This document shows, piece after piece, positions 3,716 to 57,815 of a stretch of DNA of 64,000 bases; the first letter of the stretch is position 1; every line of letters begins with the position of its first letter. Source of the stretch: Clostridia bacterium. GTDB lineage: Bacteria > Bacillota > Clostridia > Oscillospirales > CAG-272. A program made the translations under genes and the position numbers. The notes below the pieces were generated by a model that ran no database searches, was not told the origin of the DNA, and was given only the letters and a program-made list of their open reading frames with translations. The stretch covers positions 31,967 through 95,966 of the forward strand of contig JAFVWS010000023.1 of assembly GCA_017501545.1 (NCBI GenBank), given 5' to 3'.

Positions 3716-4664
3716 GCTATTAAAATATGATATGAAGGCAACCAAGCGCATTGGAATACCTATGCTTATAGGCGTTTTAGCTGTTATTGTTCTTTCCGTA
3801 ATTAATTCGCTTTTCGGTGCATTTATAAGCGACGTTACATATCTTGAGCTTGAGGAGCTACCAAAGCTTTTCCAAGAAAGTGAGGGCGCACTTCTTGCCC
3901 TTACTGTTGCGTGCTTGCTTGGCACACTTGCATCTTACCTTCTTAACGTAATTTGCACAGCCCTTCTTTCAGCATCCGTAATTGCTATAATTGTAATTAA
4001 CCTTGTTAATTTTTACAAGTCACTAATCACTGACGAGGGATATTTGGCATTTACGTTGCCAGTTTCACAAAGTGAAATTCTTTCCTCAAAGATTATAAAT
4101 GCAATTATTTGGGACCTTTCCTTTGGCGCACTATATCTTGTTGGATTTTTGGCAAGCCAAGCGCCTACATTTATACGTTCAACCTATGTAAATATGGAAT
4201 ATATGCAGCTGCTTGACCCTGATTTTACATTCTGGGATTCACTAACCATGCAGTTTGGTCTTGAGGGCGTAAACGGCTTTAATATTTTAGCAGTACTGCT
4301 TTTGTTTGTTGCCTTTTACATTGCAATTACAATCGCGCTACAAATATTTATGTTCTTTACAGTGTTCCTCGGTGGCGTGGTTGCAAAAAAGCGCAAATTC
4401 CTTGCCTCAATCGGCTTTACCGCAGCAGGATATGGAACATATTACATTGTTGAATTAATTATAGTTGGCATAATTTTGGCAGTGTGCATTGTGTTCCTCT
4501 TCGTTGCAGATGCCGAGGTAATAACAGGCCTTGTGGCAGCAAATTTACTACTGCTTTCAGTAAACGTAATATTGCTTATTTCAATTATCGTTTTGGTGGG
4601 ACTATCTGTTTTATTCTATTTCCTAACAAAATGGCTAATGACCAAAAAGCTAAATCTACCATAA
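3705..4664 (+). CDS. Polytopic membrane protein, probable permease partner of the ABC ATPase
   Basis: ATG at 3705 is preceded by GGAGG (3691-3695) and overlaps the ATPase stop by 11 nt. Multiple hydrophobic helices. The 3663 start in the track has no RBS. Confidence 0.6.
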   Translation: MFAKLLKYDMKATKRIGIPMLIGVLAVIVLSVINSLFGAFISDVTYLELEELPKLFQESEGALLALTVACLLGTLASYLLNVICTALLSASVIAIIVINLVNFYKSLITDEGYLAFTLPVSQSEILSSKIINAIIWDLSFGALYLVGFLASQAPTFIRSTYVNMEYMQLLDPDFTFWDSLTMQFGLEGVNGFNILAVLLLFVAFYIAITIALQIFMFFTVFLGGVVAKKRKFLASIGFTAAGYGTYYIVELIIVGIILAVCIVFLFVADAEVITGLVAANLLLLSVNVILLISIIVLVGLSVLFYFLTKWLMTKKLNLP

Positions 4665-4667
4665 AAG

Positions 4668-4694
4668 AAAAGCGTCCCCTCGGGGCGCTTTTTA
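4668..4694 (+). terminator. Rho-independent terminator
   Basis: AGCGTCCCC-t-CGGGGCGCT hairpin followed by TTTTT. Confidence 0.7.
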
Positions 4695-4781
4695 TATTAT
4701 ATTTAAGTATGCTATAAGCACGCTTTTTCACTGACGAGCGCATTGCCTAATTTAAAAATTTTAAAAATTTTAAATTTCCTA

Positions 4782-4810
4782 TTGACAAACAAAATTTTAT
4801 GTGATAGAAT
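4782..4810 (+). promoter_or_regulatory. Sigma-A promoter of the tRNA operon with an upstream phased A/T-tract UP-like element
   Basis: TTGACA (4782-4787), 17 nt, TAGAAT (4805-4810). TTTAAAAATTTTAAAAATTTTAAATTT lies immediately upstream. Confidence 0.65.
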
Positions 4811-4833
4811 AAGGTGCGTTGCAGGACAACTAT

Positions 4834-4908
4834 GCTGGTGTGGCTCAATGGCAGAGCAGCTGATTTGTAATCAGCAGGTTGATGGTTCGACTCCGTTCAC
4901 CAGCTCCA
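4834..4908 (+). tRNA. tRNA-Thr (anticodon UGU), CCA encoded
   Basis: Manual cloverleaf: acceptor GCTGGTG/CACCAGC, D stem GCTC/GAGC, anticodon stem GCTGA/TCAGC with loop TTTGTAA, T loop TTCGACT, 3' TCCA. Confidence 0.85.
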
Positions 4909-4927
4909 AAGTCCTGCAACTTTTAAT

Positions 4928-5012
4928 GGGGGATTTCCCGAGCGGCCAAAGGGGGCAGACTGTAAATCTGTTGTCAACGACTTCGCTGGTCCGAATCCAG
5001 CATCCCCCACCA
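4928..5012 (+). tRNA. tRNA-Tyr (anticodon GUA), long variable arm, CCA encoded
   Basis: Acceptor GGGGGAT/ATCCCCC, anticodon loop CTGTAAA, long variable arm, T arm GCTGG-TCCGAAT-CCAGC, 3' ACCA. Confidence 0.9.
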
Positions 5013-5047
5013 AAAAAATCGACAAGTTTCGACTTGTCGATTTTTTT
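5013..5047 (+). terminator. Rho-independent terminator of the tRNA operon
   Basis: A-run, ATCGACAAG-tttcga-CTTGTCGAT hairpin, then T7 run. Confidence 0.8.
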
Positions 5048-5050
5048 ATT

Positions 5051-5447
5051 CAAGCCGCAGGCTTGGTATGTAATCACGCGTCAGCGTGTATGGTATCGCC
5101 GTAGGCGCATGGAATCATCAAAGGTGCATTTTCTGCGGCTTGATTCCATACCGTCTTGCAACGGATTCCATACAATGTTTTGCATTGATTCCATACACGC
5201 CTCACGGCGTGATGTGGCGCACGAGTTCAAGTCCATACGAAAACTCCCCGAAATATCTTTTTTGTTTATCCAAGCCGCAGGCTTGGTATATCATCACGAC
5301 GCAGTCGTGAATATCATCAGCCCCTTTGGGGCTGTATCTCATCACGCGCCTGCGTGCATCTTGCCTGCGGCTTGATGTTATACAACACTATATGTGTTGA
5401 TGATATGCAATTCCTATGGAATTGATGATATGCAAGGCTACGCCTTG
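5051..5447. repeat. Two tandem multi-hairpin units: variable short palindromes separated by constant linkers
   Basis: Both units start with CAAGCCGCAGGCTTG (5051, 5271) and contain its complement CTGCGGCTTG (5133, 5365). At least 13 hairpins of 4-7 bp, most with CA...TG ends. Linkers are GATTCCATAC (unit 1) and GATGATATG (unit 2), with their reverse complements in the first half of each unit. Confidence 0.7.
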
Positions 5448-5518
5448 ATTTATTTACAAAAGCATGGTATAATAAAGCCATCGATAAATAAGAATTTGAT
5501 AAGCGGAGGTAATTTATT

Positions 5519-6223
5519 ATGAAAAAAGCTTTGGTGCTTGTTCTGACATTTGTATTAGTTTTAGGATTAAGCAGTTGTGCACAGAAGGAATACGAATTAC
5601 CGTGGGATCACTTCTGCTATTCTGCTAACGACGGGAGTGTCATAGAGCTTTCCTCAGAACAAAAAGAGGTTATCATCGACTTGCTTAACAATGGTAAATG
5701 GTACGGAGAAATCGCAAAATGCACCTCCGACGTAAAGTTTGCAACGAAACGTCAAAGCATCGGTTATTGCATAAGTGAAGGAATCTTTAACGATTTCACT
5801 CAAAACAAATCTTTGCGACTTTCAGATGAAGATAGAAGTACAATTAATGGATATTTGGTAAAACAGGCGACAAAGTTGATCGATATTGAAAAATATAAGG
5901 CTCTTAAGATAGAGGATACGACATCTATTGAAGTGGTATACGATTATATTAAGGGCGAATTTACTACTTACGAATTTGTCATTGATAACCAAGAAACAAT
6001 CGAAGATATCATGACAGAAATAGTAAATATGGAACTTAAGAAGTATCCCGAAGATCAGGATATAGATTTTTATCAACGTTGGATTACCGTTAAACAAGGT
6101 GATAATGAATATCTCATCAACTTAGCATACGTTTCTGACAACTACGGAAACAGTTATTTGTGTCAATCTCAAACAGTGTGTGAAATTATTGAAAAATACA
6201 TTGAAGATAACTTGATTCAATAA
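5519..6223 (+). CDS. Hypothetical lipoprotein
   Basis: Signal peptide with lipobox MKKALVLVLTFVLVLGLSSC. RBS GGAGG upstream. No recognisable catalytic motif. Confidence 0.6.
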   Translation: MKKALVLVLTFVLVLGLSSCAQKEYELPWDHFCYSANDGSVIELSSEQKEVIIDLLNNGKWYGEIAKCTSDVKFATKRQSIGYCISEGIFNDFTQNKSLRLSDEDRSTINGYLVKQATKLIDIEKYKALKIEDTTSIEVVYDYIKGEFTTYEFVIDNQETIEDIMTEIVNMELKKYPEDQDIDFYQRWITVKQGDNEYLINLAYVSDNYGNSYLCQSQTVCEIIEKYIEDNLIQ

Positions 6224-6316
6224 CGTCAAACCCCAATTTGTCGGGCAGAAGCACAAAAAAATCAGACACCTTTTGTTCGTTCCCCCCCTGTTTAGACACC
6301 TTTTATCACGTTTAAG

Positions 6317-6356
6317 GCACAAAAAAAGGACACCAATTGGGTGTCCTTTTTTGTGC
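6317..6356. terminator. Bidirectional rho-independent terminator
   Basis: GCACAAAAAAAGGACACC-aatt-GGGTGTCCTTTTTTGTGC, an extended perfect palindrome with A and T runs on both sides. Confidence 0.7.
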
Positions 6357-6440
6357 TTTGAGCTATCGAATGCCAAGCCAAAATGCCTCGGCTATGCCGA
6401 GAATCCATCCTTGCCTGTATCTTTTTCTATACCCTATAAA

Positions 6441-57614: not shown

Positions 57615-57815
57615 AATGAAATCGTGGCTATACCACGATGAAATCTTCGCTTTACTCAGATGAAATCCAAGGCGTTGCCTTGGATGAAATCAAATCCGTC
57701 TGTTATAACCCTGCGAAGCAGGATTTCATCGCGAAAGCGATTTCATCCACCATAGGTGGATTTCACCCGTCGAAGACGGATTTGACTGCGTGATACTCCG
57801 TTAAGAGTATCACGC
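57615..57815. repeat. Multi-hairpin array with constant GATGAAATC / GATTTCATC linkers
   Basis: Hairpins at 57621-57639, 57665-57685, 57710-57722, 57728-57741, 57745-57761, 57767-57779 and 57788-57815. Linker GATGAAATC occurs 4 times in the left half. Its reverse complement GATTTCATC (and variants) occurs 4 times in the right half. Confidence 0.7.

Follow-up and report, generated by a model that had tools for sequence, protein, structure and literature searches.

Tandem hairpin-array units at a tRNA gene end are part of an insertion cassette and of a widespread, uncatalogued element of gut Clostridia

The non-coding region at 5051-5447 of the window, the 64,000-nt stretch of Oscillospirales DNA analysed here, consists of two tandem copies of a modular hairpin-array unit. 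It lies in the tRNA-proximal front part of a 1307-bp cassette (5013-6319, + strand) that three related species lack at the orthologous site. The element is widespread in gut Clostridia, non-coding and uncatalogued, and belongs to no known family. Our main reading, to which we assign a probability of about 45%, is that the units are the cis-acting module of a non-autonomous mobile cassette and act as single-stranded DNA, in a mode resembling that of REP/BIME elements.

Both units begin with the same anchor, CAAGCCGCAGGCTTG, at 5051-5065 in unit 1 (5051-5211, + strand) and at 5271-5285 in unit 2 (5271-5447, + strand). The anchor hairpin is followed by two to three modules, each made of a constant linker of 8-9 nt and a short G+C-rich hairpin. 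An inverted copy of the anchor's 5' arm and loop comes next, and then at least three modules in which linker and loop are reverse-complemented. This partial anchor copy forms the centre of each unit, at 5133-5142 and 5363-5374, with perfect arms of 11 nt in unit 1 and 12 nt in unit 2. In unit 2, the anchor/centre helix encloses the left hairpins at 5295-5309, 5318-5334, and 5343-5356, while the right hairpins occupy 5383-5399, 5408-5424, and 5433-5447. The corresponding hairpins of unit 1 are at 5075-5088, 5097-5107, and 5116-5126 on the left and at 5151-5164, 5173-5187, and 5196-5211 on the right; its third left hairpin, CATCAAAGGTG, is a weakened version of CACCGAAGGTG in related units. Unit 1 carries linkers of class B (GTATGGAAT / ATTCCATAC) and unit 2 linkers of class A (GTATATCAT / ATGATATGC). 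The right linkers read ATTCCATA(C) and ATGATATG, respectively, and the left linkers are their reverse complements. Unit 1 ends in a truncated tail (5212-5267, + strand; ..GAGTTCAAGTCC..GAAATATCTTTTTTG) that is joined to the T-run and ATC leader of unit 2. A tail consensus was built from 12 loci; in relatives, the tail extends as ..GTAGCCC..CACA and is followed by a terminator. Across units, hairpins measure 11-22 nt, their stems are perfect, bulge-free, and 4-10 bp long, and the number of right-hand modules ranges from three to more than six.

These features are far beyond chance. Fold z-scores were -7.7 and -6.4 for unit 2 and -4.1 and -3.7 for unit 1, and none of 200 shuffles folded as well. 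TTGATGATATGCAA with up to two mismatches occurs seven times in the window against 0.9 expected, and the anchor with up to three mismatches eight times against 1.9. An open reading frame at 4743-5375 is spurious, as it crosses both upstream tRNA genes and the region is non-coding. Gene callers have likewise read the element as open reading frames elsewhere, giving a 175-aa "gene" in L001 and a 193-aa "gene" in L124.

Unit 2 was aligned and tested for covariation across 55 units. Of the cells, 97.3% pair, compared with 82% in shuffles and 29-40% in slid controls. Compensatory change was found in 22 pairs, with 327 cells altered on both sides, and none of 500 shuffles reached this level; RNAalifold was also run. 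Over 211 distinct hairpin modules, 94.6% of pairs are Watson-Crick. The stems differ inside every unit and change by compensatory substitution, while the linkers stay constant. Complementarity between anchor and centre is kept through four full anchor replacements and one loop-length change, and five alternative anchors have matching centres (CAAGCCGACAGG/CTGTCGGCTTG, CCATTGCGAAA/TTTCGCAATG, CAATCCGAAGG/CCTTCGGATTG, TCCGCCT/AGGCGGA, and GTGTTCCGC/GCGGAACAC). The first-pass annotation had described two related multi-hairpin units with a long-range helix around three hairpins, stems that vary with pairing preserved, and half-units with reverse-complementary linkers, all of which hold. It also had each unit end in a T-run, which is not the case for unit 2, where the last hairpin runs directly into TTGATT, a -35 box. 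Its picture of an "inverse CRISPR" with variable palindromes is misleading. Although the palindromes vary within a unit, each position is conserved between species, and the hairpins form a small, position-specific repertoire common to different species.

Strong folding, numerous compensatory changes, and a covarying long-range helix are what a structured non-coding RNA would show. Such an RNA could be a read-through product of the tRNA operon or start at a promoter that escaped detection. Its anchor helix would form the base of a cloverleaf-like junction, leaving the single-stranded linkers to bind protein or RNA, as a sponge or scaffold. The position of the units downstream of a highly transcribed operon and the U-rich stretch at the end of each unit also fit, as does a preference for G:U-type mismatches on the top strand of the left half. 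We nevertheless regard a functional RNA as unlikely. The loops, linkers, and mismatch bias switch strand at the centre, so that neither strand carries the same motif throughout. Counting modules that are related by descent rather than independent events, loops of the G..A type number 42 of 98 in the left half and 0 of 76 in the right, and T..C loops 6 of 98 and 43 of 76, respectively; on the same footing, G:T mismatches outnumber A:C mismatches 21 to 6 in the left half, with no such bias in the right. Both halves use one set of motifs for linkers, loops, and anchor but read it in opposite directions, with G..A loops on the top strand at left and on the bottom strand at right. This flip argues against one functional RNA. 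Linker classes C, D, and E appear reversed in polarity relative to the tRNA, which counts against the DNA reading. Triloops closed by C-G, GAA, GCA, and GTA among them, account for more than half of the loops. Triloop dominance is unusual among stable RNA hairpins, and d(GCGAAGC) is a very stable DNA mini-hairpin of the C-G-closed GAA triloop type. The variable number of right-hand modules also counts against an RNA, as does a strong terminator (5013-5047) ahead of the units, with no promoter found by the promoter scan between it and 5445. Rfam lends no support either: across 4600-5700 of the window only the two tRNAs scored, even at E<=10, and at the gathering threshold the whole window and ten related loci gave only tRNAs and Gut-1, both elsewhere.

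The linkers of the two halves do not pair with each other. For linker-linker covariation, 495 of 500 shuffles do as well as the alignment, and columns 80:127 are mismatched in 43 of the 55 sequences. The left/right complementarity exists only because each linker is nearly invariant; instead of forming a helix, the linkers present a single motif in both polarities. Linker-linker helices stacked into a rod of four-way junctions were rejected on the same grounds, TATCTCAT in left linker 3 standing opposite a T of right linker 1 in 37 of 55 units. The inverted repeat of anchor and centre surrounds a unit's left half only. If the segment between them underwent site-specific inversion, one uniform array would result; this idea was rejected for now, as 123 of 123 units are in the same state with respect to the upstream terminator.

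Several other readings of the repeats were considered and set aside. A promoter array was suggested by the resemblance of TG-GTATATC to an extended -10, but the linkers of classes B, C, and D are unlike it, and the scan of 5047-5445 was negative. The region is not an array of intrinsic terminators: only 5013-5047 fully qualifies, and what comes after a module hairpin is ATGATATG or ATTCCATA. A weak terminator-like match, made up of unit 2's final hairpin and ATTTATTT, overlaps the -35 box. A CsrA-type GGA sponge fails because GGA occurs in class B only. The tail has a conserved GGTTCAAATCC-like motif but no consistent accompanying stem, which speaks against a true tRNA-like T-arm. Chi-like, Ter-like, dif-like, and DNA-uptake-sequence readings found no feature in support.

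The setting of the units became clear from related genomes. Upstream lies a tRNA operon with a predicted promoter at 4782-4810 (+ strand) and the genes for tRNA-Thr(TGT) (4834-4908, + strand) and tRNA-Tyr(GTA) (4928-5012, + strand), both called by ARAGORN and Rfam. The CCA of tRNA-Tyr (5010-5012) is the insertion point. In three related species (L129, L134, and L135), with the same gene order as the window, this CCA is followed directly by CAAAAAAGGACACC...GGTGTCCTTTTTTGTG, and the window minus 5013-6319 aligns seamlessly to L134, at 93% over 406 nt. These empty sites show that 1307 bp were cleanly inserted after the CCA and ahead of the ancestral tRNA-Tyr terminator, CAAAAAAAGGACACCAATTGGGTGTCCTTTTTTGTG, which now lies at 6320-6355, shifted by 1.3 kb. 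The insertion polymorphism has exact borders. The cassette ends are AAAAAAATCGAC... and ...GTTTAAGGCA, and they show neither terminal inverted repeats nor a target-site duplication; junction homology is limited to CA.

Besides the two units, the cassette contains a terminator, a promoter, a single orphan gene, and, at its end, a conserved motif. The terminator at 5013-5047 is a bidirectional intrinsic one, with A7, a 9-bp stem with a TTCG loop, and T7; counting A-run and T-run, it forms a perfect palindrome with 16-nt arms. It is part of the element and not of the tRNA gene, because the same terminator types follow different tRNAs across species and similarity between copies begins directly after CCA. 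The cassette in this way brings its own terminator, which insulates the tRNA gene, and unit 2 brings an outward promoter. This promoter (5445-5473, + strand; promoter scan) has a -35 box TTGATT, a 17-nt spacer, and an extended -10 TG-TATAAT. Its -35 box uses the TTG of the last hairpin of unit 2, and it faces the cargo gene at 5519-6223 (+ strand). The same junction of hairpin and -35 box is present in at least 34 other units, and the downstream genes differ. The cargo gene encodes an orphan protein of 234 aa with a lipoprotein-like signal peptide and no Pfam match, and it is missing from the orthologous site in the three species with empty sites. The gene-distal end of the cassette is formed by the motif E3 (6265-6319, + strand; GACACCTTTTGTTCG..AGACACCTTTTATCACGTTTAAGGCA), whose final GGCA echoes the CCA of the tRNA. 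In L022, L028, L042, L048, and L053, E3 also follows the one cargo gene that each unit-bearing cassette carries, and in L096 it lies directly upstream of a unit's terminator. A metagenome scan found it in only five contigs, none of which carries a recombinase. In all these cases an A-run terminator comes next after E3. Other loci likewise combine terminator, one or more units, promoter, one small orphan gene, and E3.

We sought a gene that could move such a cassette. No recombinase, transposase, or HUH-nuclease gene was found in the cassette or nearby, and 148 open reading frames within 3.5 kb downstream of units, on 8-kb pieces of metagenome-assembled genomes (MAGs), showed no enrichment of such families. 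RAYT, integrase, and transposase are absent from the 25 most frequent of the 132 Pfam families that these reading frames match. A conserved neighbouring gene was also rejected, as the downstream genes are diverse; the largest cluster consists of nine PF05635 proteins and the next of five XRE-type regulators. No autonomous copy of the element was identified.

A search with an anchor-based pattern across Oscillospirales brought the number of related units to more than 120, spread over about 100 genomes at species level, all of them MAGs. Of 113 units, 71 sit 35-50 nt past a tRNA, with more than 30 anticodon types represented, and one unit follows a tmRNA. The element does not accompany tRNA genes universally, since about 13 further tRNA operon ends in these loci lack a unit. 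Copies inside one genome are 68-85% identical; the best match, at 87-97%, is found in another species beside a different tRNA. The nearest relative of unit 1 (L027), for example, is 94% identical and lies behind a tRNA-Met in a different genus-level MAG. Strain-level relatives (L001-L003) differ by only four SNPs, two in hairpin loops and two in the degenerate third left hairpin of unit 1. BLAST against phage and plasmid collections and a pattern search of viral contigs gave no match, and a literature search by sequence strings and keywords found no description of the element. The first-pass annotation recognised no element family in the region, and none turned up in Rfam, among phages and plasmids, or in the literature; nor does the region match a known REP, BIME, or MITE family, and related copies are plentiful. 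Comparison of the same locus between relatives, which it had proposed, revealed the empty sites, and hairpin number does vary among units. Its view of a free-standing RNA-like locus 400 bp long "after the tRNA terminator" does not survive, since the terminator belongs to the element, the region is the tRNA-proximal part of an insertion, and the polarity flip is at odds with a single RNA.

The anchor and linkers are almost invariant across these roughly 100 species, and such extreme conservation across bacterial families would also fit a function for the host. Placed between active tRNA operons and the next gene, the element could insulate one from the other, buffer supercoiling, or serve as a platform for regulation, with a conserved host protein on duplex 12-bp TG-linker-CA blocks or with cruciform extrusion, and it would have spread by recombination instead of transposition. 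An analogy comes from the BIMEs of E. coli, which are bound by gyrase and IHF where operons end. It is consistent with such a role that the element always follows a terminator and very often precedes a promoter whose -35 box lies in the last hairpin, and that the genes around it are of the usual chromosomal kind, none of them from a mobile element. However, hairpins of 11-22 nt place the linkers out of helical phase for cooperative duplex binding, and duplex binding requires neither compensatory stem changes nor loop polarity. Many tRNA operon ends lack the element, the close relatives at the window locus have neither the element nor a substitute, and near-identical copies lie behind different tRNAs in different species. 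We find a host-serving DNA element improbable, to the same degree as a functional RNA.

Placement at tRNA and tmRNA 3' ends, with three plus three to four short repeats in two orientations, also raises the possibility of a classical integrase attachment site, in which the units would be an attL- or attP-like remnant and the linkers integrase and excisionase sites around a core. Inserts of a second kind, E2, occur in other loci of the set; these small inserts are bordered by exact 16-23-nt copies of the tRNA 3' end, as is characteristic of insertion by an integrase, and the T-loop-like GGTTCAAATCC in the tail would fit as well. Yet the E2 inserts carry no units, and the window cassette has no duplicated tRNA segment, only CA. 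In the downstream screen, no integrase gene lies near any of the roughly 120 loci, viral contigs and phage and plasmid collections contain no match, and mere spacers between arm sites would not explain compensatory hairpins. We consider this very unlikely. The tRNA- and tmRNA-targeting islands and their integrase-less derivatives (CIMEs and satellite-type elements) resemble the cassette in 3' end insertion, tandem accretion, small cargo, and non-autonomous copies. Islands of the integrase type have direct repeats of about 15-50 nt of the tRNA 3' end on both sides and a tyrosine integrase gene. The cassette differs from them in having neither a duplicated tRNA 3' segment (2 nt, CA) nor an integrase, its junction is exactly CCA/terminator A-run, and the hairpin arrays have no counterpart there.

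Among known repeats, the REP/BIME/REPIN elements are similar in having short G+C-rich extragenic hairpins with a conserved flanking motif, clustered in both orientations at operon ends as a mosaic of hairpins and linker motifs. They are also strand-specific and presumably work in single-stranded form, recognised by a protein in trans, the REP-associated tyrosine transposase (RAYT), a Y1 HUH enzyme. In REPs, however, the stem itself is the conserved repeat, whereas here the linker is constant and the stem free. REP palindromes have a GTAG or CGTC tetranucleotide at one end, and REP dimers are mostly head-to-head, with head-to-tail negligible (PMC3733652). The flank of the unit hairpins is instead G(T/C)AT plus 5 nt (GTATATCAT or GTATGGAAT), with no GTAG or CGTC, and the modules run head-to-tail in blocks of three and then flip. 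The same REP survey makes no mention of Clostridia or Firmicutes (PMC3733652), and the unit hosts are Firmicutes. The units further differ in their long-range anchor helix, strict placement at tRNA 3' ends, and built-in terminator and promoter, and no RAYT was found for them in the downstream screen described above. Pneumococcal BOX, a modular MITE-like repeat with the layout boxA-boxB(n)-boxC, is another point of comparison. Like the units, it is non-coding, intergenic, and strongly folding, has a variable number of modules, can alter expression of its neighbours, and is presumably mobilised in trans. BOX has another sequence and host, its modules are conserved in sequence and are not alternations of hairpin and linker, and it has no tRNA-end targeting, polarity switch, cargo gene, or end motif. 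Nor is the cassette a MITE, as its ends have neither terminal inverted repeats nor a target-site duplication, only CA microhomology. CRISPR arrays share the regular alternation of constant and variable, partly palindromic short segments, but their direct repeats are 23-55 bp, with unique spacers of like length and usually cas genes, compared with the 8-9 nt of the unit linkers, and a unit has six to seven modules with a polarity switch. The "variable" parts are conserved between species rather than acquired, and no cas genes were present among the 148 downstream reading frames.

We return to the main reading, of the units as a module of a non-autonomous cassette that acts as single-stranded DNA. 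We infer that the unit functions as DNA and not as a single RNA, considering the loop polarity, the C-G-closed triloops, the mismatch bias, the unpaired linkers, and the negative Rfam and promoter results. Replication, transcription, or supercoiling would open the duplex and allow the hairpins to fold. The folded form may be strand-specific, with the linker and G..A-loop hairpin in the top strand of the left half and the bottom strand of the right; since the G..A-loop form lies on opposite strands in the two halves, one array would be exposed whichever strand is single-stranded. A putative trans-acting protein, from the host or from an autonomous relative, would read the constant linkers and the anchor, and the stems would need only to pair. 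The unit would then serve as the recognition and architecture module of the cassette and have a role in its mobility, comparable to REP/BIME elements read by RAYTs or to multi-site transposon ends. It is only the polarity of loops and mismatches in the sequence that points to the single-stranded form. Mobility would accord with the empty sites and with best matches that lie in other species next to other tRNAs. Against the reading stand the negative screen for recombinase, transposase, and HUH-nuclease genes, the failure to find an autonomous copy, cassette ends with nothing but CA microhomology, the reversed polarity of linker classes C, D, and E, and a conservation of anchor and linkers that a host function would also explain.

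A broader and more doubtful proposal is that these are the cassettes of an undescribed gene-cassette system in gut Oscillospirales, in which small, recombinase-less cassettes are inserted and stacked at any tRNA or tmRNA CCA end by a putative enzyme that reads folded single-stranded DNA. Such an enzyme would recognise a tRNA-like target fold together with the cassette's linker-hairpin arrays. Integrons offer the nearest parallel, as attC sites are also defined by a folded structure and act strand-specifically, and integron cassettes typically carry just one small gene, frequently an orphan, and line up in tandem at a shared platform. An attC site has an R''-L''...L'-R' architecture and a neighbouring intI/attI platform. 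The cassettes described here differ in that each comes with a promoter and a terminator, any tRNA gene can supply the platform with its 3' end, there are no R''/R' (GTTRRRY) boxes or extrahelical bases, and no integrase family is among the 25 most frequent Pfam families downstream. If this proposal is true, it would amount to an integron-like platform built on tRNA gene ends, and a dedicated enzyme, if one exists, would represent a structure-guided, sequence-tolerant insertion system.

With these units, gut bacteria that are abundant but uncultured prove to have a large non-coding family, sharp in structure and very conserved, that both RNA and repeat catalogues have missed. Their design of constant linkers and free stems, with a switch of strand at the centre, is a natural case for the study of folded single-stranded DNA recognition, and the built-in terminator and promoter form a compact natural insulator-promoter part. 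The exact filled and empty sites make precise insertion at a tRNA CCA end directly testable. For the biology of these bacteria, the 3' ends of tRNA genes are hot spots for the gain and loss of small orphan-gene cassettes.

Behind the genes for tRNA-Thr (4834-4908) and tRNA-Tyr (4928-5012), the window carries a cassette (5013-6319) built around two non-coding hairpin arrays, here called units. It opens with a terminator, a perfect palindrome with 16-nt arms (5012-5047, of which 5013-5047 belongs to the cassette), and continues with unit 1 and its truncated tail (5051-5267), unit 2 (5271-5447), a promoter predicted to be strong by a promoter scan (5445-5473; -35 TTGATT, 17 nt, TG-TATAAT), a cargo gene for a 234-aa orphan protein in no Pfam family, and a 55-nt end motif, E3, ending in GGCA (6265-6319). 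The hairpins, units and helices described in the first-pass annotation were all found in place on reading 4300-6200. As it proposed, both units open with CAAGCCGCAGGCTTG, whose 5' arm plus loop recurs inverted 72-80 nt on (perfect arms of 11 and 12 nt), and short hairpins with 8-9-nt linkers lie within and after this repeat; unit 1 includes one degenerate hairpin. Unit 2 does not end in the T-run first described but in the -35 box of the promoter at 5445-5473. Linker and anchor motifs are over-represented within the window, and both strands fold strongly (z -3.7 to -7.7, with none of 200 shuffles as good). An ORF at 4743-5375 that overlaps the units is spurious, as it passes through both tRNA genes. 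Gene callers likewise report units as ORFs elsewhere, a 175-aa "gene" in comparison locus L001 and a 193-aa one in L124.

Empty sites were traced through orthologues of the upstream permease in three related species (loci L129, L134 and L135), which share with the window the gene order copA, dtxR-like repressor, ABC transporter, permease, tRNA-Thr, tRNA-Tyr ... rny. In all three, the CCA of tRNA-Tyr is followed directly by CAAAAAAGGACACC..GGTGTCCTTTTTTGTG, and the orthologous site has neither units nor the lipoprotein-like cargo gene. Their terminator is matched by the ancestral tRNA-Tyr terminator of the window at 6320-6355, and the window minus 5013-6319 aligns over the junction to L134 (93% over 406 nt). 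Given these empty sites and the restored junction alignment, the cassette is a clean 1307-bp insertion. Homology at the junction is limited to CA, and neither target duplication nor terminal inverted repeats were found at the borders. Near the rny terminator, GCCAAAATGCCTC..GAGAATCCA(G/T)CCTT is conserved (window 6386-6420, L129 about 5070-5110, and the equivalent place in L133-L135). A 9-nt copy of the T-loop region of tRNA-Tyr (GAATCCAGC) lies inside this stretch, which an old integration event probably left as a scar.

Related copies were present elsewhere: a scan for the anchor...centre pattern (the first hairpin motif and its inverted copy), over a set with a single genome for each species, returned at least 120 loci. 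Among the matches listed, hosts are metagenome-assembled genomes (MAGs) from animal guts (Oscillospiraceae, Acutalibacteraceae, Christensenellaceae-labelled, and unclassified Eubacteriales/Clostridia). Leaving out those at a locus edge, 71 of the 113 listed units lie 35-50 nt 3' of a same-strand tRNA gene, with more than 30 different anticodons represented; one listed unit lies behind tmRNA (L121), and the remainder are mostly second units or sit behind another small insert. About 13 other tRNA operon ends in the same loci have a plain terminator and no unit. Between tRNA and unit lies a terminator that is conserved behind different tRNAs, and copy-to-copy similarity starts immediately 3' of CCA; this terminator is therefore part of the element. 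Copies inside one genome are only 68-85% identical, while among the matches listed the best match of each copy (87-97%) comes from another species, where a different stable-RNA gene is its neighbour, as for L026 behind tRNA-Trp versus L121 behind tmRNA (97%) or window unit 1 behind tRNA-Tyr versus L027 behind tRNA-Met (94%). The evidence shows that the hairpin unit is a mobile, non-coding, strongly structured module. Contigs often end in or near the tRNA and unit region (L130 at 4695, L131 at 4155; also hit loci such as L006, L028, L057 and L073). The repeats probably break up short-read assemblies, and unit copy numbers would therefore be underestimated.

Tokenising all units found and aligning 55 units of linker class A gave a common grammar. 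An anchor hairpin is followed by two to three repeats of left linker plus hairpin, a short pyrimidine-rich spacer, a centre that is the reverse complement of the anchor 5' arm plus loop, and a right half of 3 to >6 repeats of right linker plus hairpin. Units exit either into a promoter that draws on the TTG of the last hairpin for its -35 box (at least 34 units) or through a conserved tail, ..GAGTTCAAATCC..AAAATATCTTTTTTGTAGCCC..CACA, and the next terminator. Left and right linkers are GTATATCAT and ATGATATAC in class A (window unit 2), GTATGGAAT and ATTCCATAC in class B (window unit 1), ATGAAGC and GCTTCAT in class C (L057, L102), TGAAAT and ATTTCAC in class D (L022), and GTGAAGT and ACTTCAC in class E (L138). 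Classes C to E keep the overall layout with other linkers and anchors. The right-module count varies from 3 to >6 (L021 about 2160-2400, L104, L105, L015, L013); in L021 two modules, CAAGGC.. and CAACAC.., take turns three times, a pattern suggestive of tandem growth through slippage at the constant linkers. After the element promoter, a leader (A)AACTCACCGATAAATAAGAATTTGA(C/T) is conserved ahead of unrelated genes (window 5474-5518, L031, L058, L084, L106, L122), possibly an operator or leader motif travelling with the element.

Hairpin pairing holds in 97.3% of cells, versus 82.2% in column shuffles and 29-40% with slid partners. Both sides change in 22 pairs (327 cells), and the covariation score is 0.388 versus 0.117, with 0 of 500 shuffles as high; RNAalifold agrees. 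Watson-Crick pairs fill 1014 of the 1072 stem positions in the 211 distinct modules. The palindromes had been called variable. Pairing is indeed kept by compensatory change, but the stems come from a limited, position-specific repertoire common to species and do not vary freely. The anchor-centre helix is invariant in the canonical set by search design; with non-canonical anchors the centre still matches, down to a 1-nt loop insertion (anchor/centre pairs CAAGCCGACAGG/CTGTCGGCTTG, CCATTGCGAAA/TTTCGCAATG, CAATCCGAAGG/CCTTCGGATTG, TCCGCCT/AGGCGGA and GTGTTCCGC/GCGGAACAC). Left linkers are the reverse complement of right linkers in sequence, as first described, but they do not form a helix: left and right linkers show no covariation (495 of 500 shuffles are as complementary), and in 43 of the 55 sequences the characteristic C of left linker 3 stands opposite T. 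What is conserved is therefore a single linker motif, present in two polarities. The evidence shows that sequence constraint sits in the anchor and linkers, while stems need only pair.

Polarity also switches in the loops. On the top strand, left-half loops are G..A in 42 of 98 distinct modules and T..C in 6, and right-half loops are G..A in none of 76 and T..C in 43; single mismatches in the left half are G:T-type in 21 cases versus A:C-type in 6, a bias absent or reversed in the right half, although modules share descent and these counts are not independent. More than half of the loops are triloops (GAA, GCA, GTA or complements) closed by C-G. Triloops of the C-GNA-G type are a hallmark of stable DNA mini-hairpins. 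The right half carries linker, loop and anchor in reverse complement, flipped one module at a time, and the order of the modules is not mirrored. The form "linker + G..A-loop hairpin" thus occupies the top strand on the left and the bottom strand on the right, and neither strand throughout; the evidence shows that the strand-specific form changes strand at the unit centre. Classes C to E seem to be arranged oppositely to A and B, with T..C-loop hairpins in the left half (L022, L057, L102, L138, L051).

The units could instead be structured RNA, which the conserved pairing would fit. However, the loop pattern with its polarity switch, the strong upstream terminator and the lack of a detectable promoter favour a single-stranded-DNA form over one functional RNA, and we consider the RNA reading unlikely, as we do, to the same degree, a host insulator or regulatory DNA element. 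Given the constraint pattern and the strand switch, folded single-stranded DNA with a trans protein is the most economical mechanism, and we put its probability at roughly 0.45. The unit would fold as single-stranded DNA and be read by a protein supplied in trans; whichever strand is exposed, one array would be ready. Its part in the cassette would be that of a cis-acting module for recognition or architecture; the cassette's terminator would shield the tRNA gene, and its outward promoter would drive the cargo. This working mode would resemble that of REP/BIME-RAYT systems and multi-site transposon ends, although by their defining tests the unit is not a REP, MITE, attC site, CRISPR or integrase island.

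Other parts of the cassette recur. E3 reads GACACCTTTTGTTCG..AGACACCTTTT..CGTTTAAGGCA, with two direct repeats of AGACACCTTTT and the end CGTTTAAGGCA. It lies directly 3' of the single gene behind a unit (L022, L028, L042, L048, L053) or immediately 5' of the next unit's terminator (L096, L053, L022), and five metagenome contigs show the same placement; an A-run terminator follows it in every case (window 6265-6319, the loci just named, and L136-L140). In cassettes that combine units with a gene, E3 marks the gene-distal end; it has no Rfam match. The cargo genes are small, and most are orphans. Commonest among them is one for a PF05635 "23S rRNA intervening sequence" four-helix-bundle protein (counted at 9 loci; first gene after the unit in L018, L025, L028, L033, L047, L081, L099, L105, L114 and L116), followed by XRE-type regulators. 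The PF05635 family includes Avd, the accessory protein of diversity-generating retroelements; the cargo protein of this family may bind nucleic acid as a partner of the element, or may just be a frequent hitch-hiker.

That the units are classical integrase arm sites seems more doubtful than the RNA and host-DNA readings. Among 148 ORFs within 3.5 kb downstream, neither integrase nor transposase is found in the 25 most frequent of 132 matched Pfam families, and no single family matches over 5 ORFs. In general, the grammar 3' of such tRNA genes can be written as X, A-run terminator ... X', where X and X' can be the tRNA 3' end, its exact 16-23-nt duplicate, the tail, or E3. The duplicate belongs to separate 160-360-nt inserts, E2, which carry their own terminator right behind the tRNA CCA, often have the T-loop segment inverted at their start, in several cases share an internal GCAACGAGCGCAAGCGAGGCGA, and end in an exact 16-23-nt duplicate of the preceding tRNA 3' end (T-loop to CCA). 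E2 lies between tRNA and unit in L007, L024, L031, L037, L048, L055, L062, L076, L085, L089, L104, L106, L108 and L123, and also at L129 4806-5060 and L133 4200-4500. E2 inserts resemble mini-elements of the integrase type that lack the integrase gene itself.

The first-pass annotation recognised no known family, and Rfam agreed: at E<=10 only the two tRNAs matched, and the whole window plus ten related loci gave no match for the hairpin units. Gut-1 RNA (RF01706), unrelated to the units, scores above gathering at window 57718-57788 (minus strand) and L106 1-72. BLAST against phage and plasmid collections, the anchor...centre scan of viral contigs (0 matches), and a literature search by sequence strings and keywords did not return the units. 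A survey of REP families does not mention Firmicutes and defines REPs by other features (PMC3733652). Taken together, the units are real, unexplained by the libraries searched, and form a widespread family with a well-defined, unusual architecture and demonstrable insertion polymorphism; we rate them as mobile repeat elements of the structured, intergenic kind. The chance is fair that the units mark a new system for inserting cassettes at the ends of tRNA genes.
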